A DNA stretch of 64,000 bases. Source: a virus. Below are positions 12,695-57,088 of this stretch, one piece after another. A program made the translations under genes and the position numbers. Location: the IMG/VR virus record IMGVR_UViG_3300044910_000908, positions 1-64,000 of that record; one strand, written 5' to 3'. The first letter of the stretch is position 1. Each line of letters begins with the position of its first letter. Below the pieces are notes generated by a model, which saw only the letters and a program-made list of their open reading frames with translations, was not told where the DNA came from and ran no database searches.

Positions 12695-13354
12695 TTAATA
12701 CGGATTATAATATTCGTCAGATACAAAAATAATTTTGCTTTCGTCTGTTTTCCACAAATATTCGCCATAAGGTCCATTACATCGAATTTTGTGAGTCCAT
12801 TGCTGATTTTCTACTAATGCATATTTTGCATTACGAATCTCATCGCAAACTTCAGGACCTACTGCTAATATCTCAACCCATTGATCTTTTACATTTTCAT
12901 CATAATCATCTTTGTCAGAAATAATAATGCCACCTTTTGAAATTGGTTGGAATGTGCTTTTTGTTAAATTTGCACAAAATTTAAAAATAACAGCATCAAG
13001 AATTGGATATAATTTTTCACCGTCATCTGTTACAATGAATTGTCGATTAGGAATACTATCTTCAGAAAAAATTCCAAGAATATCTTCTTCTTTCATTAAC
13101 AGAACTTTTCCTTTATTCTCTAATTCAACTTCTTGTCCTGCATATCTACCAAATAATACTTTTTCACCAACATTAATGGAAATTGGTTTTAAACTATTAT
13201 TCTTATCATTAGCTTTACCCTTTCCTATTGCTAATATAACACCAATAGAAGGAGCTTCTTTTGTAATATCTGATGGGATAAAAATACCACCTTCAGATAC
13301 AACTTCTTTTTCATTTCGTTTAACAACAACTTTATCATATAAAGGCTTAATCAT
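12695..13354 (-). CDS. groES: GroES co-chaperonin with a second degenerate GroES domain
   Basis: Start reassigned to ATG 13354 (GGAG SD): MIKPLYDKVVVKR..SEGGIFIP..GVILAIGKG..VGEKVLFGRYAG..EEDILG; second unit LYPILDAVIF..SKGGIII..VEILAVGP. Confidence 0.85.
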   Translation of the reverse strand: MIKPLYDKVVVKRNEKEVVSEGGIFIPSDITKEAPSIGVILAIGKGKANDKNNSLKPISINVGEKVLFGRYAGQEVELENKGKVLLMKEEDILGIFSEDSIPNRQFIVTDDGEKLYPILDAVIFKFCANLTKSTFQPISKGGIIISDKDDYDENVKDQWVEILAVGPEVCDEIRNAKYALVENQQWTHKIRCNGPYGEYLWKTDESKIIFVSDEYYNPY

Positions 13355-14138
13355 TTTCTTCTTCTCCAACAATATTAAAATAAACAGGAACATTATTATA
13401 AAACAAAACATCAACTTTATTAACAATTTTTGTTAATTGATCTATATCTTTTCTGACAATTATTCTGCGACTAATAGGACCTTTAGGATGATGTTCTTCA
13501 GGAATATTTTTTAATTCTTCTTCAGTTAAATATTTTATAACATCTTGTTTAACAAAAATAGAACCTCTTTTTAAATAGTCAGGTAATTTATTCCAATAAT
13601 ATCCAATCGTTTCTAACTTTGCAATTCTTTGTTTAGTATTTAATCCATCTAATTCTGATTGCTTAAAATGAGCATGAGCAACCATATTTACGCTATTTTT
13701 TGCAGCATCCATTTCTCTCCACATTATATTTTCAGTAATAATTTCTAAATTGGGAACTTGCCAAATTCTACAATCAAAAGTTCCCAATTTATCATAATTA
13801 GAACTAAAATAAGCTGAAGCATATCCCGCTAATGAAGAACACAATTTTTGTACTCTTCCATCAAACATATCTAAACTTTCCCAAGCTAAAGTAATTTCAT
13901 CAGATTGAACATAAACAATATCAGCATTAAATTCGTGCAATAAAGATTTTGCAGTATCTTCCATCAATTTAATAAATTCAATATCAAATGGCTTTTCTAA
14001 ATCTCTTGTTAATGTATGAAATGCTCTACCATCTAATCTTGCAATAACAGGTATCCAAGGAATTAAATTACTTTCTGATAAACCTTCAAATTTTTTATGT
14101 TTATCACCCAAATCTTTAAAATCTAAACTATTTTTCAT
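13347..14138 (-). CDS. tRNA(His) guanylyltransferase / Thg1-like 3'-5' polymerase
   Basis: RLDGRAFH, YVQSDEI, FDGRVQK, FDCR, WRE.DA.KNS. Confidence 0.92.
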   Translation of the reverse strand: MKNSLDFKDLGDKHKKFEGLSESNLIPWIPVIARLDGRAFHTLTRDLEKPFDIEFIKLMEDTAKSLLHEFNADIVYVQSDEITLAWESLDMFDGRVQKLCSSLAGYASAYFSSNYDKLGTFDCRIWQVPNLEIITENIMWREMDAAKNSVNMVAHAHFKQSELDGLNTKQRIAKLETIGYYWNKLPDYLKRGSIFVKQDVIKYLTEEELKNIPEEHHPKGPISRRIIVRKDIDQLTKIVNKVDVLFYNNVPVYFNIVGEEEND

Positions 14139-15191: not shown

Positions 15192-16136
15192 TCAAAATTG
15201 AATAATGGATTTTTTATCTGGTTTATATAATTGAGTGCAAGAAAACATATCAATAAATGAATTAGGACTTTTAGCAATTGAATTGAGTTGATGTAGTCCT
15301 AAAAATCTATTGAATTGAAATAAATTAAATTTTCCGTGATTTTCAATACCATTAACAATAGTATCTTTAATTGCTTGTTTAATATCTTCTGGCTGACAAT
15401 CAAGGTCCATTAATAATTTATTTTCTTCAAATAATTCTTTAACTTTAAATGTTTCTTGAATATCTAATGTAGGATTATATTTAGTCCATTCTTCGTTCAT
15501 AAGTAATGTCATTTCATATGGATCAGAAAAAGCTTTTTCTAAACGTTTAGAACGAACATTTGGATATGCAGAGTTTACATTATCTCCCTTATCACCTCTA
15601 ATACATTTTTCAAAAATAAAGTATTCAGGATTTTCATGTGTTCTAGGAATACCTTTATCTGGATTAAGAAGAGTTACATTTTCATGTCTTAATAATTGAA
15701 TAAAATCTTTATCTCCTGATAAAACAGTAATATTATCGCCAGAAAAATGTTGAACATAACCTGCTATTAAATCATCACCTTCTACTAAATCATTTTGTAA
15801 ACAAATAATTGATGTATGTTCTCTTACTAATTGTTCAAATTGTTGCAAAACTTCAAATAAATGGTCCATTGAAGGATCCTTAATGCGATTTCCTTTATAT
15901 GGAATTTTAGAAACACATTTATTTGATTGCGTATAAGATTTTCGCCAGTTTCTTCCACCTTCAAATACAACAGCAATACTATCAGGTTTCAATTGTTTGT
16001 AGTATTTGTTTAAAGTTATTAGACATGAATGGAGTGCTAAACCAGCTTTTTCTTCAGTTGACCCAGTATAGGCACCTGAATGAGCTGAAGCTACTCGCCA
16101 GAATAAGTTTGGTACATCAACAATTAATTTATGCAT
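15192..16136 (-). CDS. rnh: RNase H / 5'-3' flap exonuclease (T4 rnh-like)
   Basis: LIVD, NWRK..Y, YKGNR, EGDDLIA, LSGDKDFIQL, GDKGDNV. Confidence 0.92.
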   Translation of the reverse strand: MHKLIVDVPNLFWRVASAHSGAYTGSTEEKAGLALHSCLITLNKYYKQLKPDSIAVVFEGGRNWRKSYTQSNKCVSKIPYKGNRIKDPSMDHLFEVLQQFEQLVREHTSIICLQNDLVEGDDLIAGYVQHFSGDNITVLSGDKDFIQLLRHENVTLLNPDKGIPRTHENPEYFIFEKCIRGDKGDNVNSAYPNVRSKRLEKAFSDPYEMTLLMNEEWTKYNPTLDIQETFKVKELFEENKLLMDLDCQPEDIKQAIKDTIVNGIENHGKFNLFQFNRFLGLHQLNSIAKSPNSFIDMFSCTQLYKPDKKSIIQF

Positions 16137-17447: not shown

Positions 17448-18164
17448 TTAGGCTGAAGTTTGAGAGAACATTCTGACTTCATGGCCTGATACAGAGATTA
17501 AAGCAGATGCATCACAGAATGTAATAATGACTTCTGAACCTGCTTCATTTAAAGCTGTTTTTAGCAATGGAGCAAATGTATCTAATGGAAGATAAGATGA
17601 AGATGAAGATGCATCTGAACTTAATTCTTCATAAGGAGTTGTTAATGAAGTGCTGAATACATCTTGATTGTTATCAGTAAATTCAACTACAACTTCATTC
17701 TTTTTCTTAAATAGGAAAGCAACATTTTCAGCACCCATTGCTTTACCACCATTTAATAACATTAAAGCTTGTTCTTTACCAATAGTTACAGAACGAACTG
17801 GAGCATCATCAACATTTTTAGGATATTTAATTCGAGTTGGTGAAGTAGCTCTATATTGAACTGATGCATTAGAACCTTTGATATTTAGCATTGTAGCTTC
17901 ATTTTTAGCATTAACATCAATATCAATAGATACATCAGAACCAAATAGTGCTAATCTAGATTTTAGCATTTTCAATCTTGTTAAACCTAATTTAGCATCT
18001 GTATCTAATTCTGGTAAATTTTTATCACTTAAAATTAGACAAGTATTATTTGTATTAATACCACTGACTTTACCATCAGCAATAACAATAGCATCAATAC
18101 CCACTAATTCGCAAACATCTAAAATAGTTTTCAACGCAGTAATATCAGTTGCACTTAATTTCAT
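17448..18164 (-). CDS. Probable sliding clamp (gp45-like)
   Basis: 238 aa, begins MKLS..DI..LK like gp45, two beta-rich halves, directly downstream of DNA polymerase. Confidence 0.7.
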   Translation of the reverse strand: MKLSATDITALKTILDVCELVGIDAIVIADGKVSGINTNNTCLILSDKNLPELDTDAKLGLTRLKMLKSRLALFGSDVSIDIDVNAKNEATMLNIKGSNASVQYRATSPTRIKYPKNVDDAPVRSVTIGKEQALMLLNGGKAMGAENVAFLFKKKNEVVVEFTDNNQDVFSTSLTTPYEELSSDASSSSSYLPLDTFAPLLKTALNEAGSEVIITFCDASALISVSGHEVRMFSQTSA

Positions 18165-18212: not shown

Positions 18213-19418
18213 TTAAAATTGAACAATAGAATTTACTCTAACTGTTTGAGGTGTAGGAACCTCTAATCCCATTGCTTCAAATACACCTAATAATTTTGCA
18301 TTAATCAATTTCTCCTCAGATACTTTCATATCTATTTCAAAATTCTCTAAAAACCATTGAGGAAATTTTGTTAAATCCGCAGGAAATGCAAGTGTTCTAA
18401 AACCAAATTCATTTTCCTTTAATTCAAATACTTTAACTTTATCACCATTCATTATTTTTGGATGAATACTATCTTTATATTCATCAATTAAAACATTATA
18501 ATTTACTGATGCTCTAATATGTCCAGGAACTGTCATCTTTCCTTTTCCATTCTTAGATTTCATTGGTTTACCATCTAATTCTGCAAAATAAGCTGAAGTA
18601 TATAATTCCAAATTATTAGCTGATTTAGATATTCCTAACAAAATTACTTCTGATGGTGAAATTTCTCCACTTGTAAATAATTCTTTTCGTTGTTCATTAA
18701 TATAAGTAGATACGTCAGGATAAGACATACCATCTAATATCCTATCAACAACATTCTTTAAAAACTTCTGAATGACTTTAGGTGTATCAGACTTCTTAAT
18801 TTCAGAACCCATAGCTTTCATTTTATTAGTTCTAAAACCTTCTAAATCTACAACTTTTGCCATATATTTTTTACGAGCTTGAAATAATGCTCGTTCAGCA
18901 ACAATCTCTCTTCCACAAACAATTAATTTATCATATCCTGGTTGACAACAAAATGCATCAATCATGAATTGAGGAAAACTTTCATTTATACCATCAGCAA
19001 CAGCATCAGCAATTAATACAGCTTCTTCAATATCATTTGCACCAGTAGCAAAATAGGCCGAATCGGTGTCAGAATAGATAATTGTATGATTGTTAGCATT
19101 GTAAATATTTTGTACAACTTTTTTATCTAAATTAAAACTCTTAACTAAATTGGCTTCTTCTCCTGATATTAAATATGCAGCAGTATTTGCCATATGAGAA
19201 GTAATAGCTCTACCTGTAAAAGTAACAGAAGCCCCAATCATCTCATCAACGCCCCATCGAAAACCTTTTGCTAGTAAAGCTCCATAAGCTGAATTTAAAG
19301 AAATCTTTTTTGTAAGTTGTAATAAATCATAATGTTCTACTTGATGTTTAGCTTCTTTAATTTGTTCAGCAATTTCAGGTGTATAAAATTTTCCATCTAT
19401 TTCAATTAATTTTGACAT
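18213..19418 (-). CDS. Family B DNA polymerase, C-terminal half (fingers/palm/thumb)
   Basis: Motif B KKISLNSAYG, SVTFTGR, motif C YSDTDS, RKKY, MGSEIKKSDTP; no exonuclease domain or motif A. Confidence 0.93.
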   Translation of the reverse strand: MSKLIEIDGKFYTPEIAEQIKEAKHQVEHYDLLQLTKKISLNSAYGALLAKGFRWGVDEMIGASVTFTGRAITSHMANTAAYLISGEEANLVKSFNLDKKVVQNIYNANNHTIIYSDTDSAYFATGANDIEEAVLIADAVADGINESFPQFMIDAFCCQPGYDKLIVCGREIVAERALFQARKKYMAKVVDLEGFRTNKMKAMGSEIKKSDTPKVIQKFLKNVVDRILDGMSYPDVSTYINEQRKELFTSGEISPSEVILLGISKSANNLELYTSAYFAELDGKPMKSKNGKGKMTVPGHIRASVNYNVLIDEYKDSIHPKIMNGDKVKVFELKENEFGFRTLAFPADLTKFPQWFLENFEIDMKVSEEKLINAKLLGVFEAMGLEVPTPQTVRVNSIVQF

Positions 19419-24341: not shown

Positions 24342-26600
24342 TTAAACTACACAAGCACCTGATTTACAACCACCTTCTTCAATATTATCAGAAGAACCAT
24401 CATTAACTTGATTGTAATACATAGTACACATTCCCATTTTATATGCAAATAATAAATCCTCAATCAATCTTGACATTTTAATTTCACCTTTAGAAGGGTC
24501 ATACGAAGTGTTGCATGAAATAAATTGATCATTATATTTCTGAAATACTGCAGTAGTTTTCAAGTAATCTTTACTATCAACATTCCACAATGTTTCATAT
24601 AAATGATTTAATTTGTTATATTCAGGAACAACTTGTGGTAATACTCCATCTTTAGAACCTTTAATACTAATTAAATCTCTAGGAGGTTCAATACCATTTG
24701 TCTCATTAGAAATTTGAGATGATGTTTCACTTGGAAAAATTGTTGATAATGTTGCATTTCTAATACCATATTTTTTCAAATCTTCTTTTAATTCATCCCA
24801 TGGCATTAATGGAGCATTAACTGGAATTTTATTTAAATCTCTCGGAACAATACCATCATGATATTTTGTTCTTAATTCAATAGAACCAAATTCTTTTGCT
24901 AATTGATTAGATGCTTGAATTAAATAAAAATTCTGTTTCTCAATCATTGTTTCAGTCGCAAGTAATGCTTCATCTGTACCCCATTGTAATCTTCCTTTTG
25001 CTAACCAATGAGCATAACCAATTAAACCAATGCCTAATGGACGACATAATTTAGTAGCTCTTTCAGCAGCATCAATTGGATATTCTTGATAATCTAATAA
25101 AGCATCTAAAGCTCTAACACCCATTTCACAACAATCTTTTAAAATTCTTTCTTCTTTTTCAGATAAATTCTTACTAAATTTACCCCAATTAGTAGCTAAT
25201 AATGTACATAAATTTAATAATGAATTACCATCTCCAAGCGGAGTTGTTCGCTGTCCAATTTCCGTACATAAATTAGTCATATAAACTGGTTCATAATAAG
25301 GTGTTTGATAATTGACATTATCAGCATTAAAAATATAAATACGTCCAGTTTCATATCTTTCATTCATTAATTTTGTAAAGTATTCAAATGCAGGAATAGT
25401 TTTCTTTACAACTTTATTTGAGTTTTCATATTTTTCATATAATTCTTCAAATTTTTCTAAATCTGGAGAATAAAAAGCTTCATATAAATCTGGAACTTCT
25501 TCAGGGCTAAATAATGTAATATTTCCACCTGTGATTAATCTTTTATACATTGTTCCATTAAGAGCAACAACATAATCTAAAGTTCTAATACGAGTTTCTT
25601 CAGTTCCTTTATTGTTTTTTAATTCAATTAATTTTTCAAATTCTAAATGCCATCCAGGATAATTAATAGAAGCTGAAGCCGACCTAATTCCACCTTGCGA
25701 TACTGCTCTTAAAGAAGAATTCATTAATTTTAAATAAGGAATAACACCAGTTGTAATAGCATCTCCTTGTCTAACTTGTTGTCCTTCAGCACGTAATCTT
25801 CCAATATTTAAACCAATACCAGCTTTTCTTGAAGCATAATCAATAATAGCTGCTGATGTAGCTTTAATAGAATTTAAGCTATCACCACAATCCATTAATG
25901 TGCAAGAAGAAAATTGTTTTACATTAGTTCTTAATCCAGCCATAATAGGTGTAGGAAGAGAAATATAATGTTGGCTAACCAAATCATAAAATTTCTTGAT
26001 GTATCCCATACGAGTAGCAATTGGGTACGCGCCAAATAATAATGCTGGAACTAAAATATAAGGGAATTGAAATGTTTCATATACATGTTTAGTTTTTCTA
26101 TTTTGAACTAAATATTTTTTACGCATTTGTTCTGAACCTGCATAACGAAATAAATCATCTCTATTATGGTCAATCATATCATTTAAAATATTAAATTCTT
26201 CTTCATTATAAAATTCTAATAATTCTTTAGTATAAACACCTAATGCCACATTTTTCTTAACAACATCATATAAATGAGGTGGTGTATTAGAACCAAATGC
26301 TTCTTTACGAATAGATAACCAATTTAATCTAGCAGCAACATGATCATAATTTGGAGTATCTTCATTAATTAAATCTGCAGATGCTTTAATTAAAGTTTGG
26401 TGAATTGAAGAAGTTTTAATATTTGGAACGAAATGTGGATTAGCTGTCATTTCAATTTGAGAAACAGATACGCCTTTAATTGGTGGAAAAATATCATCTC
26501 CATTACATGCCCAATTAATCACTTGATGAATTTTAGAAAGATCTAATAGTTCTTTTGTTCCATTTCGTTTAGTAACAAATATATTACTGGTTTGAGTCAT
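24342..26600 (-). CDS. nrdA: Ribonucleotide reductase class Ia alpha subunit
   Basis: ATP-cone VTKRNG, QFSSC, TNLCTEI, PSETSS, MYY, C-terminal CKSGAC. Confidence 0.97.
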   Translation of the reverse strand: MTQTSNIFVTKRNGTKELLDLSKIHQVINWACNGDDIFPPIKGVSVSQIEMTANPHFVPNIKTSSIHQTLIKASADLINEDTPNYDHVAARLNWLSIRKEAFGSNTPPHLYDVVKKNVALGVYTKELLEFYNEEEFNILNDMIDHNRDDLFRYAGSEQMRKKYLVQNRKTKHVYETFQFPYILVPALLFGAYPIATRMGYIKKFYDLVSQHYISLPTPIMAGLRTNVKQFSSCTLMDCGDSLNSIKATSAAIIDYASRKAGIGLNIGRLRAEGQQVRQGDAITTGVIPYLKLMNSSLRAVSQGGIRSASASINYPGWHLEFEKLIELKNNKGTEETRIRTLDYVVALNGTMYKRLITGGNITLFSPEEVPDLYEAFYSPDLEKFEELYEKYENSNKVVKKTIPAFEYFTKLMNERYETGRIYIFNADNVNYQTPYYEPVYMTNLCTEIGQRTTPLGDGNSLLNLCTLLATNWGKFSKNLSEKEERILKDCCEMGVRALDALLDYQEYPIDAAERATKLCRPLGIGLIGYAHWLAKGRLQWGTDEALLATETMIEKQNFYLIQASNQLAKEFGSIELRTKYHDGIVPRDLNKIPVNAPLMPWDELKEDLKKYGIRNATLSTIFPSETSSQISNETNGIEPPRDLISIKGSKDGVLPQVVPEYNKLNHLYETLWNVDSKDYLKTTAVFQKYNDQFISCNTSYDPSKGEIKMSRLIEDLLFAYKMGMCTMYYNQVNDGSSDNIEEGGCKSGACVV

Positions 26601-26626: not shown

Positions 26627-27931
26627 TTAAAATTGAATAATTTGCTTTTGTTTGTTAATATTACAAAATTCAGCATCGTTTGTGATTTGCGAAATAGGAG
26701 CCATGGCTCTTTTTAAAGCGGTTGTTTTATTTGTTTTATTTCTTTCAAAAACATTAAATTGGCAACAACTTATTTCTATACCAAAGGTAGTAAAACGACC
26801 TAATTCTGAAGCTTCTTTTAAATGGATTTCAGCTTGAGTATTTCCAGCTATTTCAAAAAAATCTTCTTGATGATTTCTAATAGCTATAATATATTTCATC
26901 ATTGCTTCAGTATTAATTGGCATATCAGGAAATAGTTTTTTTAATGTTGCAGTAGCACCAGGACCAGCAACAACATAATCAGCATTTTCATCTAAATTTC
27001 CATGTGTTAAACTTTTGTCTTTATTTTGTAATTTTTTAAAATCATCATAATATTCAGCATCTATTAATTCAGAACTACCAATTCCTGGCATCCTAGCTAA
27101 GTTTGAAGAAAAATGATATCCATAATAATTTCCAATTCCTCTTTCAAGAGTTAAAAAATTAAAAGATTGTTCCATTGTTGGTTTATTCTTAAAAAATGGC
27201 ACCCATTTTTTAGATAAATATTTGACCCAATGAATCATATCAGATGGACGCATTTTTCTTTCTTGGTGTTCTTTTAATAAATTTAATTCAGTGATTAATT
27301 TATTACTGTTATTAATATTTAGTATGTCAATAGATGATGGATTTTCTCTACAATAATTTCTAGCAGCTATTTGCAAACTTGTTCTTAATTCTGTTGTTCC
27401 CCATATTTTTTCTTTATTAGCAAAAGCTTTTTCTACATTAGACATTAATGTAAATTCATAATCCATATCTTTTTCTAATAAATCAAAATTGATATATTTT
27501 GAATTAGTTGGAATTAAATAATTTAAATCTTCAGCAGTTCCTGTAATAATATCTAAAGTTCTTGCTGGTCCATAAAATTTTACAATTGCAGAATTTATTA
27601 GTTTATCCTCAAAACTAACATTATCTTCATAATATAAATGGGAATTTAACCAAATAATTTCATCATGAAATGATCTATTTGGATGGAAGTATGGAACAGG
27701 TTTATTATCAACAACAAAACCATATCCAAATCCTTTTTGATGTTTATATAATTTTGAAATATAATCTTCAAAAGTTTTAGCTTGCTGTTTATTTATCCTT
27801 ACTTCCCATTCCCGCTTATTGAATTCTTTTATAAAATTTGCTAATTGTTTTTTTACTGTTTTATCTGCAAATGACAATATTTTTTCATCAGACATATTTT
27901 TAATATCGTTGTTAGAAAGTAATGATGCCAT
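26627..27931 (-). CDS. aGPT-Pplase1 / amino-acid:DNA-transferase-like DNA base-hypermodification enzyme
   Basis: YFHPNRSFHDEIIWL, HhH-like RGIGNYYGYHFSSNL, DENADYVVAGPGA, IEISCCQF match the family pattern F.N..R..D / G.G.F....Dl / GPGA / lCEf; C-terminal IIQF. Confidence 0.75.
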   Translation of the reverse strand: MASLLSNNDIKNMSDEKILSFADKTVKKQLANFIKEFNKREWEVRINKQQAKTFEDYISKLYKHQKGFGYGFVVDNKPVPYFHPNRSFHDEIIWLNSHLYYEDNVSFEDKLINSAIVKFYGPARTLDIITGTAEDLNYLIPTNSKYINFDLLEKDMDYEFTLMSNVEKAFANKEKIWGTTELRTSLQIAARNYCRENPSSIDILNINNSNKLITELNLLKEHQERKMRPSDMIHWVKYLSKKWVPFFKNKPTMEQSFNFLTLERGIGNYYGYHFSSNLARMPGIGSSELIDAEYYDDFKKLQNKDKSLTHGNLDENADYVVAGPGATATLKKLFPDMPINTEAMMKYIIAIRNHQEDFFEIAGNTQAEIHLKEASELGRFTTFGIEISCCQFNVFERNKTNKTTALKRAMAPISQITNDAEFCNINKQKQIIQF

Positions 27932-28685
27932 TTATTTTTTTTCTCCGTTTCCAAATTCTAGGTAAACTATTAAAACCTTTATGAACGAGTTCAAATTCTT
28001 CGTTTATTATTTGTTTTGCTAATCGTTGGGTTTGTCTACCAGTTAAAATAGTAGTATCATATTTATATTTTTCAAAATGGCCATAACACGAAGGTGAACT
28101 AAAGCTTGCAGTTTCTATTAAATAGTTAGTTGACAAATCCATACAACTTTTTATAAAATCAAATGGGTCCTCAAAATGTTCAAAGGTTTCTAAACACAAT
28201 ACAACATCAAACTTTTCATCTTTTGGAAATTCATAAAAATTAATATTTTTATTATCAGAATGTAAAGAACACCATTTTTCACAACAAGAAATCTGATGGT
28301 CTACATTATTGAATGTATAAACTTGTTTAAAATTTGATTGCAATAATTTTTCAGTTGTAAATCCTAAACCATTAAAAATATCAATAATAGAATATTCAGA
28401 TAAATCAATATTATTTTTCTTAAAATAATTATTGAGTGCCCAAATACTATTATTTGAAGATACAAAAAAGCACCAAATACATTCTAATAAGTAATCTGTG
28501 GTAGAATAGATAGAAAAATCTGTTCTTTTAGAATTTACCCATAATTCACCTAATTTATCTGAATTTATTTTTAATGCATTATAAAGTTCTTTTTTTGAAT
28601 TAGAATTTAATAAAATTTCATTATCTTTTAATTCCGGAACACAAGCAATAATATTATCTATAAAATTTTTATGACTAAGCTTCAT
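27912..28685 (-). CDS. Class I SAM-dependent methyltransferase
   Basis: IIDIFNGLGF (motif I variant), FDVVLCLETFEHFEDP; C-terminal IITF. Confidence 0.8.
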   Translation of the reverse strand: MKLSHKNFIDNIIACVPELKDNEILLNSNSKKELYNALKINSDKLGELWVNSKRTDFSIYSTTDYLLECIWCFFVSSNNSIWALNNYFKKNNIDLSEYSIIDIFNGLGFTTEKLLQSNFKQVYTFNNVDHQISCCEKWCSLHSDNKNINFYEFPKDEKFDVVLCLETFEHFEDPFDFIKSCMDLSTNYLIETASFSSPSCYGHFEKYKYDTTILTGRQTQRLAKQIINEEFELVHKGFNSLPRIWKRRKKINGIITF

Positions 28686-29073
28686 GTCTTACATTTTCCT
28701 TCTCAGTTAAATTATGATCTAAATGTATTACATTAAGCCAAGAACCACAATTTTGCTCAATTATATTTTTTTGAATAGGGTCATCTTCAAAATGACAATT
28801 AATTTTAATTCCAATATTTTTCAATTTATTCAAAACTTGAGCTTTATGCATTCCAGAACTTTCTCTAGTTTTTTCATGAAATTGCAAATTGTTAAAAAAT
28901 ACTTTATTAAAAATATTTCTTTTTTCTAGCATTGAAATTGTTTCAACGTATTCTTCAAAAGACCTACCAGTAATAATAATATCATTAGGACCTGGATAAA
29001 CTCCTTCGATAGAGTTATTAATAAAAATAACTCCATCGATATCGTAACTATTAATAGGGGAATGATTAAACAT
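28675..29073 (-). CDS. Small capless HAD phosphatase (candidate inositol-phosphate phosphatase)
   Basis: YDIDGV, ITGRS, HKA, HFEDD. Confidence 0.8.
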   Translation of the reverse strand: MFNHSPINSYDIDGVIFINNSIEGVYPGPNDIIITGRSFEEYVETISMLEKRNIFNKVFFNNLQFHEKTRESSGMHKAQVLNKLKNIGIKINCHFEDDPIQKNIIEQNCGSWLNVIHLDHNLTEKENVRHEA

Positions 29074-30285
29074 TTATTCTCCTATCAATCTCAAATAATC
29101 CATTCCACCGCTATTATATTCATCCCATGCAAATTTAATTGCATCTTCAGGAGTTGTTTGTTTACTAGTAATATCTGTTAATTGACGATTAGCTAATGCT
29201 TCGCATTCTTTATAAGATAAATCATAAGTTAATTGTTTAGGCGGAGATTTTTGAGTAAACGCAGAAGGTCCTCTTAAACAACCAATAATTCCCATTTCTT
29301 TTGCAACTTTAATATATCTTAAAGCATCAATTACAACACCACTAGAATTTTCTGAATCTTGAACAGATAATTTAACATCTACAGTAATTGGAGCATCTCC
29401 AAAACCTCTAAGATGTAAATTAAAGTAAGCAATTTTATTATCTTTTAAATAAGGAATAAAAGTTGAAGGACCAGCAAATAAAGCATCGTCATCAACAGGA
29501 ATTCCTCTTAAATCATTTTGTGCTCTAATAACATTTTCTTTTGATACTTTTTTATGTTTTAATCTTGTTTGAACCATCATATTATTAAAATCGGTATTAC
29601 CTCCAACGTTTAATTGTTGATGATAATCAACTATCATACCTCGACTAAATGCTAGTTCTTGTAACATTTGAGATAAAATAGAAGCTCCAAATTGAGATTT
29701 CATATCAGAACCAATATAAGGAATGCCAGCACTAATAAATTTTTCTTCCCATTTAGGATGATTTAATGTTAATACAGGAATACAATTCAAAAATGAAATT
29801 TTATGTTCAATACATTTTTCAGCCCACCATTCAGTTGCATTTTGAGAACCTACTGGCAAGTAATTGATAATAATTTCAACGCCTGTTTCTTTTAGAATTT
29901 TATCAATATCACAAACATCTTCATTAGAAATTCTGAAACCCATTCTTTCTGGTTGAGTTTGCATATAATCAGAAACACCGTCTAATACTGGACCCATATT
30001 AACAATTGGGCCATCAGGAACATCTTTACAAAATACTCTAGCGCAATTAGGTTGAGCAAAAATAGCTTCGCCTACTGGACGACCAACTTTTCTTCTATCA
30101 ACATCAAAAGCTGCTACTACTTGAATATCAGCAGGATGATAACCTCCAATTCTGTCAAACATAACACCGGGAATAGAATTTCCTTCAGCATCTTCATCAT
30201 GATCTTTATAATATTCAAGGCCTTGATAAAGAGAAGAAAAACAATTACCAACACCAACTACACAAACTTTAATTTTTTTTGACAT
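29074..30285 (-). CDS. ino1: myo-inositol-1-phosphate synthase
   Basis: VGVGNCFSSLYQG, AAFDVD..KVG, NYLPVGS, GSDMKSQFGA, QLNVGGNTDF.NM, KKVSK, DSENSSGVVID, FTQKSPP. Confidence 0.95.
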   Translation of the reverse strand: MSKKIKVCVVGVGNCFSSLYQGLEYYKDHDEDAEGNSIPGVMFDRIGGYHPADIQVVAAFDVDRRKVGRPVGEAIFAQPNCARVFCKDVPDGPIVNMGPVLDGVSDYMQTQPERMGFRISNEDVCDIDKILKETGVEIIINYLPVGSQNATEWWAEKCIEHKISFLNCIPVLTLNHPKWEEKFISAGIPYIGSDMKSQFGASILSQMLQELAFSRGMIVDYHQQLNVGGNTDFNNMMVQTRLKHKKVSKENVIRAQNDLRGIPVDDDALFAGPSTFIPYLKDNKIAYFNLHLRGFGDAPITVDVKLSVQDSENSSGVVIDALRYIKVAKEMGIIGCLRGPSAFTQKSPPKQLTYDLSYKECEALANRQLTDITSKQTTPEDAIKFAWDEYNSGGMDYLRLIGE

Positions 30286-30323
30286 ATATAATCCTCTTTT
30301 TGTTTAAAACATTATTTACTTTT

Positions 30324-31361
30324 TTAAAATGTTACAATTTTATTAAATTGCTTAATTTCTGGTATATTAGGTTTATTATTCCAATAATCCCATCTATGAT
30401 ATAGAGGTGCTAAATGAACATTTTTTGGACGTTCCATATAAGTGTTCATATAATCTATAGGTGATATTATAAACATTTCTTGTGTTCTTGTAAACAGTTT
30501 CCAATTATTTTTTTCACATAATTGTTTTAATTTATTGTTAAAATATTCCATGATAATAGTTCTTTCTTTTTGAGAACCATAAAAAGGAGTATTTTCAAAA
30601 AATCCAGTTTTTGGAATTCTTCTAGATTCATCTTCAATAGGTAATAATTCAACTAATTCAATATTTTGAATATTTAAATCTAATAATTGGCGTTCATATT
30701 CTAATAATATTTCATCTATTTCTTTTTTTGGATCAGAATTTCTAAGTATATGATGTCTTATATCTATATTACCCCAATAACAAGTAATATAATTTAATTG
30801 AGTAATATCTATATTATTATCTTCTATTTCTTTTTTAATTGTTTTTCTTAAAACACCTTTTAAAGTTCTTCCATCTTTTCTCACAACCATTGCATTTGAA
30901 TAAAATGTTGAAAAACTATGTGAATCACCAATTATCAATTTATCAGTATTAGGATTTAAATAATATTCTTTAACTTCTAAACATTTTTTTGAAATTGCTT
31001 CCCAATCTATAGCTTTCCAATAATCATCTGCTGTTTTTCTACTTGAACATAGAAATCCATAATCAGGCATTGGCATATCTAATGATATTAATTTTGCTGA
31101 AGTTGTTCCAATTCTTTCATAAAATTTAGCGTTTTCTATTGTAGCACCACCAAATAAATTTAAAGAACCTTTAAATTCCATTCCATGATATAAATAAATT
31201 TCGTCATAATTATTCCAATCTTCATTATTATGTAAGACTTCAACTTGTTTATTCAATTCTTTAGATAATTGACAAGCTCTTAAATGAGCCCATGCATTTT
31301 TATGAGAATATTTTGAATTAGTTAATTTTCCACTTACTAAATCTATAGCAATTTTAGTCAT
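30324..31361 (-). CDS. SGNH/GDSL-like protein with an extra N-terminal domain
   Basis: LIIGDSHS (block I), WGNIDIR (block III-like), MERPKNVHL (block V His); N-terminal SH..W and YHG..F.GSLNLFGG; C-terminal IVTF. Confidence 0.65.
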   Translation of the reverse strand: MTKIAIDLVSGKLTNSKYSHKNAWAHLRACQLSKELNKQVEVLHNNEDWNNYDEIYLYHGMEFKGSLNLFGGATIENAKFYERIGTTSAKLISLDMPMPDYGFLCSSRKTADDYWKAIDWEAISKKCLEVKEYYLNPNTDKLIIGDSHSFSTFYSNAMVVRKDGRTLKGVLRKTIKKEIEDNNIDITQLNYITCYWGNIDIRHHILRNSDPKKEIDEILLEYERQLLDLNIQNIELVELLPIEDESRRIPKTGFFENTPFYGSQKERTIIMEYFNNKLKQLCEKNNWKLFTRTQEMFIISPIDYMNTYMERPKNVHLAPLYHRWDYWNNKPNIPEIKQFNKIVTF

Positions 31362-31728: not shown

Positions 31729-32493
31729 TTAATCACTGCTATCATAATTATCTCCTGTATATAATCTAACCATTGACATATTTTGTTCTTTTGAGTATTT
31801 TAAAAAAGCACTTAATATACTTTCATTAGGAGCTATTTTACAAGAAGTTCCCACAATCCCACCTTTCCATGAATTCTTTTTTGGTCCAACTTCTTTGGTA
31901 TAAGTAATATCTACTTCTCGTTTAACAAAATCTTTTTTGAAATATTGTAACCAACACATTATACCAGAACCATGAGTCCAAACTCTTTCTTCCAAATAAC
32001 ATGTCACTATATTATCTTCACCATCATAATCTTTAAATTCTATTTTTACAGGTTTAATAGATTGTTTGATAATTTCTTTAGCACCAAAATCCCATTTTGC
32101 TCTTTTTTTAAAACAACTAAAGTCATTATAAATAATTCCTGCTAAAGAACCATCACCATGATATAATGACCATTTTGCAAAATGCATTCGTTTCCATGGA
32201 ATATCAAAAACTTTGCATTGACTTTGACCAAAGCCTTTTTCATCTTGAATTCCATAATAAATTAAAAAACTATCATCACATGTTGTAATATAATAACTAC
32301 GAGGACATATTCTACCATAATACTTATTTGAATAACTATTCAATTCTTTTTCAATATGAGCTGGAATTATCCAATTTGGAATTTTTAAAAAGTATTCTTT
32401 ATTATGCCCATATTGAAAGAATATTTTTGCATATTCTCGTTCTTCAGTTCGAGATTTAATACCTATTCTAAATTCTTTCATTGAAATGACCAA
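31729..32493 (-). CDS. Hypothetical protein
   Basis: FKDYDGE...EVGPKKNSWKGG; long ORF. Confidence 0.65.
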   Translation of the reverse strand: MVISMKEFRIGIKSRTEEREYAKIFFQYGHNKEYFLKIPNWIIPAHIEKELNSYSNKYYGRICPRSYYITTCDDSFLIYYGIQDEKGFGQSQCKVFDIPWKRMHFAKWSLYHGDGSLAGIIYNDFSCFKKRAKWDFGAKEIIKQSIKPVKIEFKDYDGEDNIVTCYLEERVWTHGSGIMCWLQYFKKDFVKREVDITYTKEVGPKKNSWKGGIVGTSCKIAPNESILSAFLKYSKEQNMSMVRLYTGDNYDSSD

Positions 32494-43266: not shown

Positions 43267-44364
43267 TTAACCTCTTGTATTATTAATAATTCTAATACTA
43301 TCTACTTCTGAATATCTAATACTTTGGGTAGAATAGTATTGATTAGTTACTACTTCTAGAGACATAGTTTTATCTTCACGTTGATGGATACGTTGTTCAA
43401 GCAAATATAATGGAGACATAAATTCAAATCCAATAATGTAATAATTATGTTGTCTCAAAATAGTAACCCATTGTCTTCTAGATTTTGGGCTTAGATTTGT
43501 ATTGTCAATAATAATATTTTTATTTTGTTTAATAAATTCATTGAATTTTTTTCTAGTATATTCATTGAATTTTTCTGCATGTTCATTACAATAATTCCAA
43601 GCTTGTTTATATAGTTCTTTTATATTTGTTGTATGTTCTGGAAATATGTTAGAATAATATTCAATTCTATAATTATCAAAACTAAAGATAACAGTATTAG
43701 CATCTTGCATTAATTTTTCAGAAACTGTGCTTTTTCCAGAACCAGAAGGACCAACCAAAATATAAGCAGTTAGACCTGAATTATGTTTTTGATCTTGTTC
43801 TTGGAGATATAGAGTTTCATTAACCCAATTAGTAACAAATGGAATTTTACTATCTTCAGTAATTCTCCCACCAGCATCTGATAATAGAACATCAGCAAAC
43901 ATTTGAAGATTTCCAGTCAATGCTCTTGTACTATCAATTCTAAAATCATTATAACATTTTCTACCATAAGGCAAATGATTTTCAATCATCCATCTTACTT
44001 GACGAATTTGCAAATCAGTTAAACCAAAATTGTTATTAGATAATACATAATCTTCAAATATTCTAGCAGATACTAGTTCATGTCCAGCATATGATTTATG
44101 CTGACCACGTTTTTCTGTAAATTTTTCTACTTCACATTTTGGTTTACCAACATCATGAAATAGAAGAGCCAATTGAGAAAGTAGTCTTTCATTTTCACTT
44201 CTATTTAGAAAGAAGTGTTCTTTATAAAAACGAAGTGTCATTTGTGTATGGACGGCAGTATTTTCTTCTCTATGATAAGGAGAATTTTCCTGAGTCATGA
44301 GCATGTGATGCCAGTATGATGTTTTAGTAAAGTTATGATAGATGTCTTCAAATTGTGTAGTCAT
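43267..44364 (-). CDS. HD-domain phosphohydrolase fused to P-loop polynucleotide kinase
   Basis: YHREE..VHT, LFHDVGK, GHE..S; GPSGSGKST, IIDNTNL...R. Confidence 0.88.
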   Translation of the reverse strand: MTTQFEDIYHNFTKTSYWHHMLMTQENSPYHREENTAVHTQMTLRFYKEHFFLNRSENERLLSQLALLFHDVGKPKCEVEKFTEKRGQHKSYAGHELVSARIFEDYVLSNNNFGLTDLQIRQVRWMIENHLPYGRKCYNDFRIDSTRALTGNLQMFADVLLSDAGGRITEDSKIPFVTNWVNETLYLQEQDQKHNSGLTAYILVGPSGSGKSTVSEKLMQDANTVIFSFDNYRIEYYSNIFPEHTTNIKELYKQAWNYCNEHAEKFNEYTRKKFNEFIKQNKNIIIDNTNLSPKSRRQWVTILRQHNYYIIGFEFMSPLYLLEQRIHQREDKTMSLEVVTNQYYSTQSIRYSEVDSIRIINNTRG

Positions 44365-50256: not shown

Positions 50257-52116
50257 TTATTTTTTAAAACCTTTTAGAGAAGTTGCATTTTCAGCATTAT
50301 TGTGATTTGCTGATTTACCAGGTGCTGCTTGGTCGCCGTTACCATGGCCGTTATTATCATGTTTTGAGTCATGGTCATTATCATGATGATTTTTATATTC
50401 ATGATGATTTTCTTTATGACCACCAGTACTTACTGAAGGTTGATTAACATAAACTATTTTTTCGATTACTCTATCTACTGGAACTTCGATATATGTTTCA
50501 ACAATTCTATCTACTGGAACTTCAACCAAAACTTCTTTAATAACCACTTTCATTTGAGCTTCAATTAATGCTGCTTGTGTATCACTCAATGTTGTTTGAC
50601 TAGATACCAAATCAGTTGAACACATTTTCAAATTAGTTGAAAGATTGCCATTATTAAATTCACTATTTACCAAATCACTTGATACTTTAGCTAATGAAGT
50701 TTCTGTTGTTGTTAATTGATTTTGCAATGCAGCTAATTGTGCTTTCAATGCTGCATTTTCTGCATTCAAATCAGTTTCAACTTGTCTTAAACTTGCAAGT
50801 TGAGTATCTTCTGCACCAACTTCACAACTATAAGGATCAGCAGCTGTATCAATACATTGTTTGATTTTCAGAACTACTGGGTCTACCCAACTTAGCAAGC
50901 TAATATCATTAGAAAGTTGATATTCTACTGAAGCAATTGTTCCATTATTTACTAGTGAAGCATTAGGGAAAGCATGTTTTTCAACAAAGCTATCATCACC
51001 TAATTGACCAGAAGAAGCAGCTCCAATACTATGATAACCACGACTACTTACAACAGTGAATGTTTCATTACTAGCACCTACATATTGAACATTAGTTCCA
51101 GCTTCTTGGACTGGTGTAGCATAATCAGTTCTAAGATAACCACCTGAACCGATATAATTATGCCATCCCCAAGCACTTACAGAACCATTATTGTTGATTG
51201 CGAATGCTCCATTATTTGAACCAACTACAAAATCAACTCCAAATGCTCCTTGAACTTTAACTAATGAAGGATTACCAGCTTTACCAACATCAACATTAAT
51301 CCAACCTGATTGATAAACATCTCCATTAGTTGTAACAATGTAACCCATACTTGCACCAACTGCAACAGCTTTAGCAACAACATTTGGTACTTTTACTGGT
51401 GTAACAACATCATCAAAGTTTCCTAAACCTAATTGACCTTTATCATTATGACCCCAAACATAAACAGAACCATCTGAACTTAAAGCTCTGAAATGTTCAA
51501 GATTAACTAGTGGATTAGTTGTTTGACCTTTGCCTGCAAATCTATAACCAGCCGCGATTGATGTGATATTTTCTGGAAGATTTGCAACAACTGTTGGAGT
51601 ATGAGATGTGTTAAAATCCCATTCATAAACAACTCCTGAACCTTTAACATCACCTTCTTTCAGCATTAACATTTTAGTGCCACCAACTGCAACATCAATA
51701 ACACCAGAGATGTTAACAGCTTGTGGAACAGTTGAAACATAGCTATCAGTTGGAGTGCCTTGAACTAGATTAGATACTGCACCCCAGAAGTAGACTGAAC
51801 CATCTTCTTTTAATGCAACTGAGCGATTACCTGCAGCTGCAACATATTTTACACCAACCAGACCAGTATGAACTGGAACTTTATATTTCACGTCTCTGTT
51901 CATTAAGAATGAACCACCTGAGTAGATAGGTTCTCTTGAAGCCATCGCACCTACTTGATTTAGTCTATTATTACCTGCGGCATAGACATCGCCACTATCA
52001 TTTACAAATACGTTATGATTAAATCCACCTGCAACTTTTGTTTGAATTGCTTGTGCATTCATTGAGAAGGTAGCAACGATTGCAGCTACCAATACTTTAT
52101 TATATGTTGTTTTCAT
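50257..52116 (-). CDS. Secreted RCC1-repeat beta-propeller protein with coiled coil, VPV repeats and His-rich tail
   Basis: Signal peptide AQA; repeats such as VAGGFNH...GDVYAAGNN..NQVG and DGSVYVWGHNDKGQLG; EVPVDRIVE x2; HHEYKNHH. Confidence 0.85.
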   Translation of the reverse strand: MKTTYNKVLVAAIVATFSMNAQAIQTKVAGGFNHNVFVNDSGDVYAAGNNRLNQVGAMASREPIYSGGSFLMNRDVKYKVPVHTGLVGVKYVAAAGNRSVALKEDGSVYFWGAVSNLVQGTPTDSYVSTVPQAVNISGVIDVAVGGTKMLMLKEGDVKGSGVVYEWDFNTSHTPTVVANLPENITSIAAGYRFAGKGQTTNPLVNLEHFRALSSDGSVYVWGHNDKGQLGLGNFDDVVTPVKVPNVVAKAVAVGASMGYIVTTNGDVYQSGWINVDVGKAGNPSLVKVQGAFGVDFVVGSNNGAFAINNNGSVSAWGWHNYIGSGGYLRTDYATPVQEAGTNVQYVGASNETFTVVSSRGYHSIGAASSGQLGDDSFVEKHAFPNASLVNNGTIASVEYQLSNDISLLSWVDPVVLKIKQCIDTAADPYSCEVGAEDTQLASLRQVETDLNAENAALKAQLAALQNQLTTTETSLAKVSSDLVNSEFNNGNLSTNLKMCSTDLVSSQTTLSDTQAALIEAQMKVVIKEVLVEVPVDRIVETYIEVPVDRVIEKIVYVNQPSVSTGGHKENHHEYKNHHDNDHDSKHDNNGHGNGDQAAPGKSANHNNAENATSLKGFKK

Positions 52117-54148: not shown

Positions 54149-54652
54149 TTAAGTTAATATATGAGCTGATCCTGCGTTAAAATAAAGATATTCTATTTCA
54201 ATATTATTAAGATGTCTAGACATTTCTCCAGTAAATCTTTTAATTAATAATACATCATATGGACCAAAATCAGATAATTCCCAAGAACGAAAATTAGCAA
54301 TAGCATTCAATTTATTATTTCTAATTAAAAATTGTAATGATGATAAACATGAAGGAGAGTAAGCATTTCCTAAAAATTGAATAATCGCTCTTCTAGAAAA
54401 ATTATCTTTTAATAATTCTACTGTGCATTTTGGTAATCCTTTAGACCACCAAAAACTATAATTATTATATCTTTCAGTATCTTTGTATTCTAAAACTTGA
54501 TTTATTTCTTGATAATGTTTATCTTCCCAATCAAAATAATAATTAATACTTTCATATCTAAAAGCAATAGAAAAATTAATTATTTCTGAATAATTAGGAT
54601 TTAATATTGAAGGTTCTAATGAATTAAATTGCTCAATTAAAATATTTGTCAT
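54149..54652 (-). CDS. Short thymidylate-synthase-fold protein, dCMP-hydroxymethylase-like
   Basis: SRRAII, PSCLSSLQFLIRNNKLNAIANFRSWE...PYD, NAGSAHI; Asp at the dUMP/dCMP specificity position. Confidence 0.78.
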   Translation of the reverse strand: MTNILIEQFNSLEPSILNPNYSEIINFSIAFRYESINYYFDWEDKHYQEINQVLEYKDTERYNNYSFWWSKGLPKCTVELLKDNFSRRAIIQFLGNAYSPSCLSSLQFLIRNNKLNAIANFRSWELSDFGPYDVLLIKRFTGEMSRHLNNIEIEYLYFNAGSAHILT

Positions 54653-56353: not shown

Positions 56354-57088
56354 TTACTTAGAAAACTTAGCCATTATTTGAGCTACTGCAATAGGAACAG
56401 TTGCTGAACCTCTTCCTCTAAAACAAGTATAAAGTTCTTCAAATTTATATCTTAAATCAGTATATGCTGGAGTTGGATTACATTCATAAATTTTAGCCAT
56501 ATTTGAAGCAGCATTTCTAACTAAATTAGCGGCTGGCCATACTTGACCACTAGTCCCAACTACTAACATAACTAATGAATTATCAGCTGCAGTTTCTGCT
56601 AATTTAAAATCTTGCTCATTTAAATCTTCTCCAAACCAAACCACATTAACTCGCATATTAGCACCACAACAAGAACATATAGGAACTTCTGCTAATTCCC
56701 AATATTCTGCTTCATTAGTAGTATATTCGCAAGTTTGACATCTTAATGCTTTTAAATCTCCATGTAATTCAATTACATTTTTTGAACCTGCTTGTTGATG
56801 AAGTCCATCAATATTTTGGGTAATTAAAAGAAAATCATGTCCTTGTTTTTCTGCCCATTCTTCTAATTTTACTAATTCTTCATGGGCTCTATTAGGTTTA
56901 ATTGTTTTAAGATTATCATATCTTTGTTTATAAAAATCCCAAACTAATTGTGGATTTTTTTGAAATCCTCTTGGAGAAGCAACATCTTCCACTCTATGAT
57001 TTTCCCATAAACCATTATTATCCCTAAACGTTGGAACACCACTTTCTGCTGATACTCCTGCACCAGTAAATACTGTTATATATGACAT
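56354..57088 (-). CDS. cobB: Sir2/CobB NAD-dependent deacylase
   Basis: FTGAGVSAESGVPTFR, ITQNIDGLH, ELHG, Zn CxxC..CxxC, VVWFGE, VGTS. Confidence 0.95.
   Translation of the reverse strand: MSYITVFTGAGVSAESGVPTFRDNNGLWENHRVEDVASPRGFQKNPQLVWDFYKQRYDNLKTIKPNRAHEELVKLEEWAEKQGHDFLLITQNIDGLHQQAGSKNVIELHGDLKALRCQTCEYTTNEAEYWELAEVPICSCCGANMRVNVVWFGEDLNEQDFKLAETAADNSLVMLVVGTSGQVWPAANLVRNAASNMAKIYECNPTPAYTDLRYKFEELYTCFRGRGSATVPIAVAQIMAKFSK

Follow-up and report, generated by a model that had tools for sequence, protein, structure and literature searches.

Five genes packed together on the minus strand at positions 26627-31361 of the IMG/VR virus record IMGVR_UViG_3300044910_000908 appear to form an operon for DNA modification. 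We analysed positions 1 to 64,000 of that record, and this whole stretch is called the window below. We suggest that the operon modifies 5-hydroxymethylcytosine (5-hmC) in DNA with the product of two of its genes, a myo-inositol-1-phosphate synthase (MIPS) homolog and a HAD-type phosphatase; judging from sequence comparisons and structural models, we give this reading a probability of about 0.55. A bolder version can be put forward tentatively. A new base, 5-(O-methyl-inosityl-oxymethyl)cytosine, may be made at the replication fork without a base kinase, by a chimera of an SGNH domain with a domain of BGT type (BGT being the beta-glucosyltransferase of phage T4), which would activate or handle 5-hmC, and by a clade-1 protein that would carry out a Cys-dependent substitution, and the inositol kit may serve at least three chemistries.

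The first-pass annotation had placed five open reading frames (ORFs) in this interval. All were found there, overlapping or near-abutting, with spacings from p434 to SGNH345 of -20, -11, 0 and +38 nt, and the identities it gave them (SGNH-like, MIPS, HAD, SAM methyltransferase, aGPT-Pplase1-like) hold on profile and structure searches:

26627..27931, minus strand: p434, a clade-1 aGPT-Pplase-like protein (PF18723 'HMUDK_hel') with a predicted fold like that of HhH-GPD enzymes and amino-acid:DNA transferases (AADT); tail ...QIIQF.
27912..28685, minus strand: MT257, a class I S-adenosylmethionine (SAM)-dependent methyltransferase of the UbiG-like O-methyltransferase type; tail ...GIITF.
28675..29073, minus strand: HAD132, a probable small capless HAD-type phosphatase with motif I YDIDGV and no clamp tail.
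29074..30285, minus strand: MIPS403, a myo-inositol-1-phosphate (inositol-3-phosphate) synthase homolog with no clamp tail.
30324..31361, minus strand: SGNH345, with a BGT-type N-domain (1-135), an SGNH C-domain (~136-333) and tail ...KIVTF.
24342-26600: nrdA, 26 nt downstream of p434.

The record is an 81-kb fragment with a CheckV completeness of 23%, and because of this a gene missing from the contig carries little weight.

A survey of MIPS and aGPT-Pplase co-occurrence, suggested in the first-pass annotation, found SGNH, MIPS, HAD and p434 homologs together in 62 of 63 p434-anchored viral loci from IMG/VR, in at least three gene orders. This clustering is far beyond chance. An FkbM-type methyltransferase stands inside the set, in the place of MT257, in 45 loci; DUF6378 is found in 38, a thymidylate synthase (TS) homolog in 23, and a C5-cytosine methylase homolog and a dCMP deaminase in 18 each, with dUTPase and ribonucleotide reductase also present, and in one protein FkbM is fused with p434. 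A complete relative of 293 kb carries, in this order, a TS homolog, DUF6378, dUTPase, SGNH, MIPS, FkbM, HAD, p434, the C5-methylase homolog, an epimerase and thymidine kinase.

Three of the five operon proteins share their C-terminus with the replication machinery. Of the contig's 153 ORFs, exactly 5 have the ending I[IV][QT]F: besides p434, MT257 and SGNH345 these are the DNA polymerase and RNase H. Chance would give 0.008-0.055 ORFs (P~4e-9). The polymerase and nuclease, and the clamp to which the shared tails would presumably dock, are encoded in the window:

18213..19418, minus strand: C-terminal fragment of a family-B DNA polymerase (PF00136, profile positions 138-376), ending ...NSIVQF.
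15192..16136, minus strand: 5'-3' exonuclease of the T4 RNase H/FEN type (PF02739, E 7e-16), ending ...KSIIQF.
17448..18164, minus strand: sliding clamp, a gp45-type processivity factor (phrog_223, E 8e-5), the presumed dock for the shared tails.

The tails vary together. In one lineage the polymerase ends ...STSLF, SGNH ...INTLF and p434 ...SSCLF; in another p434 ends ...SLESFFG, SGNH ...NLESFF and the C5-methylase homolog ...TIVDFFA. MIPS and HAD never carry a tail, across lineages. Those of the module resemble the polymerase tails of T4 (...SLDFLFG) and RB69 (...SLFDMFDF), which bind the gp45 clamp. In jumbo relatives (L024, L027, L028 and L042; 185-293 kb) a polymerase of the Pol III-alpha type lies next to the module, p434 and SGNH have no clamp-type tail, and p434 has a C-terminal extension of ~60 aa. 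By analogy, the tails of p434, MT257 and SGNH345 are presumed to be putative docking elements for the sliding clamp, with DNA as the substrate; MT257 is assigned an action at DNA from the sequence of its clamp tail.

p434 matches PF18723 with E 9.5e-7 and 28.9 bits against a curated cut-off of 25, a match that was repeated on the contig. Since gp55 of phage M6 matches this family over its full length (E 8e-56) and the gene in the same position in the M6-like phage SN1 is named aGPT-Pplase1 (PMC9476957), PF18723 is, by sequence correspondence, the family formerly called aGPT-Pplase1 and renamed HMUDK_hel. The earlier aGPT-Pplase1 call was thus right. An hhalign comparison of the p434 family with M6 gp55 (E 3e-4) covers residues 241-402 of p434 only, and pairs GIGNYYGYH with GWGPFMAYE, AGPGA with AGPGA, and EISCCQF with EHTLCEF; the N-terminal ~240 residues, in which a PYFHPNRSFHDE motif is invariant, are peculiar to the p434 family. 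The closest relatives of p434 are 63-67% identical to it. The motifs quoted in the first-pass annotation (F.PNR..HD, GIGNYYGYHF, VAGPGA, SCCQF) were all found, and across 26 homologs they are for the most part invariant. Glu386 and Cys390 of EISCCQF are invariant in the same set and, because hhalign aligns this Glu-x3-Cys pair with M6 gp55, the pair is common to clade 1. Clade-2 AADT enzymes depend on a Cys with a Glu close by (PMC8989533), and attack of this Cys on C6 yields an exocyclic methylene (PMC8989533; PMC11472151); ViI gp247 employs a hydroxyl nucleophile, adding the hydroxyl of serine (PMC8989533). When the AlphaFold2 (AF2) model of p434 (pLDDT 87) was compared with known structures by VIA, the first match was 7ugk, the queuine-salvage glycosylase DUF2419 (Z 9.2), and the second was 8z2m, PaMx11 gp46/PUGT (Z 9.0, root-mean-square deviation 4.3, 230 of 287 residues aligned), followed by about 20 HhH-GPD DNA glycosylases; ranks 1-23 are all of HhH-GPD type. 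These matches support the HhH or glycosylase-like fold expected of p434.

We read SGNH345, from its sequence and its AF2 model (pLDDT 88), as a chimera of a BGT-type N-domain with an SGNH catalytic domain. Residues ~136-333 adopt the SGNH fold in the model (VIA Z 13.3; Foldseek probability 1.0), with structural relatives among sugar O-acetylesterases, the acyl-CoA thioesterase TesA and the peptidoglycan O-acetyltransferases PatB and OatA. Among 25 homologs the GDSH motif (Ser147) and His316 are invariant and Asn198 of GNID is nearly so; the Ser of block I, the Asn of block III and the His of block V are therefore seen, while the block II Gly and the acidic member of the triad were not assigned. 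For the N-domain, an atlas search gave its own family as nearest and then a cluster that is 100% PF09198 (T4 BGT), at TM 0.64. An hhalign comparison of the SGNH345 family with T4 BGT (probability 84%, E 8e-6) matched residues 3-94 to 2-97 and placed SLNLFGG on SINFFGG; three unrelated Rossmann or GT-B proteins, used as negative controls, gave E 0.28-0.77. PF09198, the Pfam BGT family, does not match the SGNH345 family at E<=1. As PF09198 is unmatched and the C-domain has the SGNH fold, SGNH345 is an N-domain relative of BGT and not a member of the glucosyltransferase family. Informative PDB sequence matches were found for neither SGNH345 nor p434, and searches of PDB sequences by phmmer and hmmsearch with p434 and its family gave no match.

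SGNH345 and p434 are physically joined in some phages. PHROG 17781, a profile of 795 positions, spans both proteins, and in 19 Aeromonas records, phage 31 among them, they are fused in a single 795-aa ORF; where taxonomy is shown these records belong to Biquartavirus, and they encode gp42 as well. Aeromonas 44RR2.8t also carries the fusion. The first-pass annotation had given the SGNH-like protein a possible acylating or deacylating part. With its BGT-type N-domain and its fusion in Aeromonas phages, it looks less like a peripheral tailoring enzyme than like an obligate partner of p434. The Aeromonas fusion phages have no MIPS and HAD. A sodium:solute symporter (SSF, E 7e-53; YidK/SGLT-like; ORF234c, L002 8545-10068) adjoins the fusion in phage 31, and it may import a group that other phages synthesise. 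In Aeromonas phage 25 (L165 2776-6047), the position that the symporter and fusion occupy in 44RR/31 is taken by a UDP-galactopyranose mutase (E 5e-54), a 358-aa protein and a stand-alone SGNH345 homolog, a set which suggests DNA decoration of a galactofuranose type. The 358-aa protein has no detectable relation to p434 or BGT.

What base might these enzymes act on? The TS homologs linked to the module are closest to gp42 of Aeromonas and T-even phages. At the diagnostic positions described in PMC13326640 all of them read D143/C146/D169/D177, the same as T4 gp42. Among the controls, RB69 gp48, a 5-hydroxy-dCMP synthase, reads E/C/N/D, true thymidylate synthases read L/C/D/N, and the dUMP hydroxymethylase M6 gp58 and its Okubovirus homolog Goe19 read D/C/D/N. 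This signature points to 5-hydroxymethyl-dCMP as the product and hence to 5-hmC as the target. The target had been given as a hydroxymethylated pyrimidine, either hydroxymethyluracil or hydroxymethylcytosine; the hydroxymethyl-pyrimidine part stands, and the choice narrows to 5-hmC. Hydroxymethyluracil was rejected because the residue at the N177 position is Asp in every linked TS homolog, and 5-hydroxycytosine of the RB69 type because D169 is kept, the positive control RB69 gp48 having Asn. A 7-deazaguanine route was rejected for the window, since the contig lacks TGT/DpdA. In Aeromonas phage 31 a gp42 gene is annotated; a T4-type BGT was not found in the relatives. In the window one ORF is of interest in this respect:

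54149..54652, minus strand: candidate divergent thymidylate-synthase-family ORF of 167 aa (custom hydroxymethylase hidden Markov model, E 1e-9; phrog_160, E 7e-10).

Its catalytic Cys and RS motif are retained, the dCMP-specificity position is an Asp, and the ~80 residues normally present at the N-terminus are missing; it may be the pyrimidine-modifying synthase of this phage.

The group to be attached would come from MIPS403 and HAD132. MIPS403 matches PF01658 (E 3e-21), and its closest relative in the PDB is Ino1 of M. tuberculosis (1gr0, E 5e-85, residues 2-362). HAD132 has a DxD motif in its sequence (YDIDGV) and matches the phosphatase part only of phrog_415, the phage polynucleotide kinase (E 1.6e-8), with no Pfam, NCBIfam or PDB sequence match. 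MT257 matches Methyltransf_11 (PF08241, E 8e-6) and, under the cut-off, the UbiG family TIGR01983 (E 6e-8).

The surroundings of this two-gene kit in other viruses are informative. A MIPS-anchored search gave 528 viral hits, and the survey covered 77 loci newly drawn from the 80 best of these. MIPS adjoins HAD in ~72 of the 77, and three contexts can be told apart. Context A, the p434/SGNH set, accounts for ~24. In context B (~30 loci, for example L105, L109 and L115) the kit is accompanied by a Tet/JBP dioxygenase with a clamp tail, a transferase of the ADDT family (PF18724, E 2e-10) and a P-loop kinase (PF18751). Context C, seen in the group of Stenotrophomonas phage Mendera and ~8 contigs (loci L001, which is Mendera, and L085, L088, L123, L125, L131 and L153), combines GTP cyclohydrolase I (FolE), MIPS, HAD, a QueC-like protein and a ~408-aa protein that has no Pfam match and ends in a clamp-type tail (...SLDDLFG); next in Mendera is a gene annotated as QueE-like. 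Mendera gave no PF01702 match, and TGT/DpdA was not detected in it. Two cultured phages add to the list. Caulobacter phage Cr30 (L163) has context B (ADDT E 1e-52), and in Ralstonia phage RP13 (L164) MIPS and HAD are accompanied by an ADDT-like gene, a P-loop gene and a clade-1 aGPT-Pplase gene (E 3e-47). Between the ADDT and MIPS genes of Cr30 there is a weak TET-associated glycosyltransferase-like gene.

The position of the kit directly between a DNA transferase of a proven type and its kinase is the strongest indirect sign that the kit supplies a nucleophile for DNA bases, and it is the reason for taking the MIPS/HAD product to be that nucleophile. The first-pass annotation supposed that this product becomes attached to a hydroxymethyl-pyrimidine of the DNA. 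Synteny, clamp-type tails and the occurrence of the kit inside AADT-plus-kinase sets back that idea. A variation on the theme is seen in L090-L092 and L117, where the context-A set includes a GT4/GT1 glycosyltransferase whose gene follows MIPS and p434 and precedes HAD. In the logic of MshA, inositol phosphate is glycosylated before it is dephosphorylated. By that analogy the gene hints at glycosyl-inositol variants.

A kinase for the hydroxymethyl base, which the first-pass annotation did not see in the window, was not found by wider searches either. Neither PF18748 nor PF18751 has a match in four context-A relatives, two of them complete and two partial, or in Aeromonas phage 31, with M6 positive as the control of the search, and tblastn of M6 gp54 and the context-B kinase against the contig gave nothing significant. 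With neither family present in the relatives, the canonical route of kinase followed by AADT cannot apply. We considered an HD+AAA_33 kinase at 43267-44364 (minus strand) as a hidden hydroxymethyl-base kinase and think this the less probable role: being of the polynucleotide kinase type, 15 kb away and without a tail, in a genome that has a Thg1-like gene, it is likelier to serve in RNA repair. The latter gene, a homolog of tRNA-His guanylyltransferase (13347-14138, minus strand, E 3e-27), is possibly its partner in an RNA-repair pair.

Put together, these observations are best read as the following sequence of events. The operon would be coupled to the replisome and would decorate 5-hmC in newly replicated phage DNA with an inositol-type cyclitol that is then methylated. 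A gp42-type TS homolog, whose gene adjoins the module in relatives, would make 5-hydroxymethyl-dCMP, which would be incorporated into DNA. MIPS403 would convert host glucose-6-phosphate to inositol-1-phosphate and HAD132 would remove the phosphate, either before or after attachment; both steps are suggested by homology and by the constant pairing of the two genes. SGNH345 and p434 would dock on the sliding clamp by their polymerase-like tails and act on 5-hmC. The N-domain of SGNH345 would hold the base while its Ser-His site esterifies the 5-CH2OH group, replacing activation by a 5-hmdU DNA kinase. p434 would flip the base, Cys390 would attack C6 with Glu386 as the acid, the leaving group would depart, and a hydroxyl of the cyclitol would add to the exocyclic methylene to give 5-(inosityl-O-methyl)cytosine. 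MT257, tethered to the clamp, would methylate the DNA-bound group. The expected benefit would be protection from host nucleases. Esterification by SGNH345 followed by substitution by p434 is the least certain part of this scheme, and taken singly we consider it doubtful. It is proposed because of the Aeromonas fusion, the BGT-type N-domain and the acceptance of thioesters by SGNH enzymes such as TesA; fusions of a kinase with an AADT exist (PMC8989533) and are a parallel to the fusion of SGNH345 with p434.

A number of points weigh against modification of 5-hmC by this operon or against parts of it. SGNH enzymes are mostly esterases, and no acyl donor was identified for the activation step proposed for SGNH345. 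The PF18723 match to p434 is good only at profile positions 195-278 of 281, the last 84. The Z of about 9 in the VIA comparison is modest, as values under ~13 can arise generically among helical proteins, and a Foldseek search of the PDB with the p434 model gave no significant match. PF18724 (AADT, clade 2) has no match in the contig at E<=10, on which ground p434 is not classed as an AADT and this candidate identity was rejected; hhalign of the p434 family with the AADT M6 gp51 gave E 0.36. Transfer of nucleophiles by aGPT-Pplase/AADT enzymes, taken as established in the first-pass annotation, is so for clade 2, and p434 is clade-1-like. Clade 1, p434 included, is a class without demonstrated activity, and M6 gp55 is dispensable in vitro (PMC8989533). 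The product of MIPS403 is only probably inositol phosphate, since its score against TIGR03450 (317 bits) is below the equivalog cut-off of 638 and its second relative in the PDB, 6k96, is a synthase of a five-membered cyclitol phosphate. The FkbM methyltransferase of the relatives mostly has no clamp tail. The contig has no match to the Pfam TS family and no clear gp42-type gene, though it is only 23% complete. Finally, the cyclitol adduct in DNA is a prediction from genes.

The same product might be reached by another division of labour, which we find unlikely, if less so than the other alternatives. p434, or p434 with SGNH345, might install the cyclitol on unactivated 5-hmC, and SGNH345 might be a tailoring O-acyltransferase or esterase for the sugar or cyclitol on the DNA. 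Or SGNH345, with its glucosyltransferase-type N-domain, might be the transferase and p434 a protein that flips and presents the base, the part played by the 'helical domain' for the 5-hmdU DNA kinase. The surroundings of the SGNH345 homolog in Aeromonas phage 25, where it stands beside UDP-galactopyranose mutase and without p434, indicate that the family is not tied to p434 chemistry; they fit a tailoring or general hmC-directed role as well as an activating one, and its structural relatives among carbohydrate O-acetylesterases and O-acetyltransferases would suit this alternative. The dispensability of gp55 and the current Pfam name of clade 1, a kinase-associated helical domain, would suit a p434 that is not itself the catalyst. 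The invariance of Glu386 and Cys390, however, argues for catalysis by p434 itself, and SGNH acyl-enzyme chemistry alone cannot form an ether. The fusion and strict co-occurrence of p434 and SGNH suggest two consecutive steps on one base, and the BGT-type N-domain suggests that SGNH345 contacts 5-hmC directly and not a distal adduct.

A further suggestion, improbable in our view, is that SGNH345 and p434, with MT257, add something other than a cyclitol to 5-hmC, and that MIPS and HAD are an unrelated metabolic cassette (osmolyte, host-takeover or envelope). The fused pair in Aeromonas phages does without MIPS/HAD, and p434 or SGNH occurs in only the ~24 context-A loci, so the kit is separable and mobile. 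Yet the kit lies between or directly beside the SGNH/p434 pair in 62 of 63 loci, it sits in other base-modification sets when p434 is missing (ADDT/P-loop kinase, FolE/QueC-like), and the Aeromonas symporter beside the fusion could import the substrate instead. That the system works on free nucleotides before replication, on RNA or on another macromolecule we consider very improbable: the best structural match of p434, DUF2419/QNG1 (Z 9.2), is presumably an enzyme of free nucleosides or nucleotides and HAD132 resembles sugar-phosphate and polynucleotide phosphatases without discrimination, but three of the five operon proteins have polymerase-type tails that co-vary with the polymerase's own, the predicted fold of p434 is seemingly common to PUGT and ~20 DNA glycosylases, and SGNH345 has an N-domain with homology to a DNA glucosyltransferase.

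Decoration of 5-hmC with a cyclitol can be compared with modifications already described. In the thymidine hypermodification of M6, ViI, PaMx11 and PhiW-14, a dUMP hydroxymethylase, a 5-hmdU DNA kinase, a clade-2 AADT and a clade-1 paralog take part. There as here a C5-hydroxymethyl pyrimidine would be modified after replication by a glycosylase-like helical enzyme with a Glu/Cys pair, small-molecule supply genes lie in the cluster, and a hydroxyl nucleophile has a precedent in the serine of ViI; p434 itself matches PF18723 and has a predicted fold that may be like that of PaMx11 gp46 (PUGT). The differences are that the base would be derived from cytosine, by a gp42-type synthase, and not from uracil; that neither 5-HMUDK nor Ploopntkinase3 was found and the SGNH/BGT chimera is in the place of the kinase; and that there is no clade-2 AADT, the N-terminal half of p434 is divergent and the putative donor is a cyclitol from MIPS and HAD, not an amino acid or polyamine.

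With glucosylation of 5-hmC in T4, the operon shares a setting in T4-like phages, the gp42 active-site signature (in relatives), the presumed decoration of the hydroxymethyl group after replication and the BGT N-domain. Unlike T4, it has no UDP-sugar-binding glycosyltransferase domain, the C-domain is SGNH, the donor would not be a nucleotide sugar and its enzymes are clamp-tailed, T4 BGT having no tail. Arabinosyl-5-hydroxycytosine of RB69/DLP3 (PMC13326640) is likewise a modified cytosine derived through a TS homolog in Straboviridae-type phages, with a supply operon that includes a capless HAD-type sugar phosphatase. RB69-type synthases with D169N make 5-hydroxy-dCMP, whereas the module-linked enzymes keep D169, and RB69 has GT-B arabinosyltransferases and an NDP-sugar. 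Tet/JBP-based hypermodification of cytosine or thymine, represented by context B as in Cr30 and RP13, has the same MIPS and HAD kit, a presumed cyclitol donor and clamp-type tails on the enzymes acting at DNA. In that context a dioxygenase makes the hydroxymethyl base on DNA, and kinase and AADT follow; the window would have a nucleotide-level synthase (known in relatives) and the SGNH345/p434 pair in their stead.

We found no paper on inositol or a cyclitol in phage DNA; in PMC13326640 and bioRxiv 2023.12.21.572611 inositol occurs merely in the names of structural matches. New here are the equivalence of PF18723 and aGPT-Pplase1, the discrimination between 5-hydroxymethyl and 5-hydroxy synthases with its control, the tail statistics with their controls, the recognition of a BGT-type N-domain in SGNH345, the searches showing both kinase families to be absent from the relatives examined, and a set of cultured phages suited to testing the chemistry. 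If the proposal is correct, a cyclitol joins the short list of groups on viral DNA bases (sugars, amino acids, polyamines), and 5-hmC has a substitution route that is independent of a kinase. Two uncharacterised protein families widespread in aquatic T4-like phages would acquire a role, the function-less clade-1 family a first activity, and one mobile two-gene inositol kit would serve at least three base-modification chemistries (hmC with SGNH and p434, Tet with kinase and AADT, and deazaguanine-type). Bases of this kind bear on how phages resist restriction and CRISPR-type nucleases, on errors when environmental viromes are sequenced and basecalled, and on the supply of enzymes that label 5-hmC. 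The idea is testable now, since parts of the system are present in the cultured phages Aeromonas 44RR2.8t/31, Cr30 and RP13 and in the Stenotrophomonas Mendera group.

The rest of the window is in keeping with a T4-like phage: all genes run in one direction at ~27% G+C, and the replication genes comprise nrdA/nrdB, gp32, UvsW, a RecA-like protein, a clamp loader, a split family-B polymerase, RNase H and the sliding clamp. The polymerase is seemingly split as into gp43 and gp43-B in Aeromonas phage 31; its N-terminal fragment was not located among those neighbouring ORFs that lack a Pfam match. A scan for promoters and terminators was uninformative, with 64 sites against 71 expected. Just upstream of the operon, at 31729-32493 (minus strand), is an Acb3-like inhibitor of CBASS (PF25187, E 3e-34). 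The phage also encodes a SIR2-family protein (56354-57088, minus strand, E 9e-49) and a 619-aa protein of RCC1 repeats (50257-52116, minus strand).

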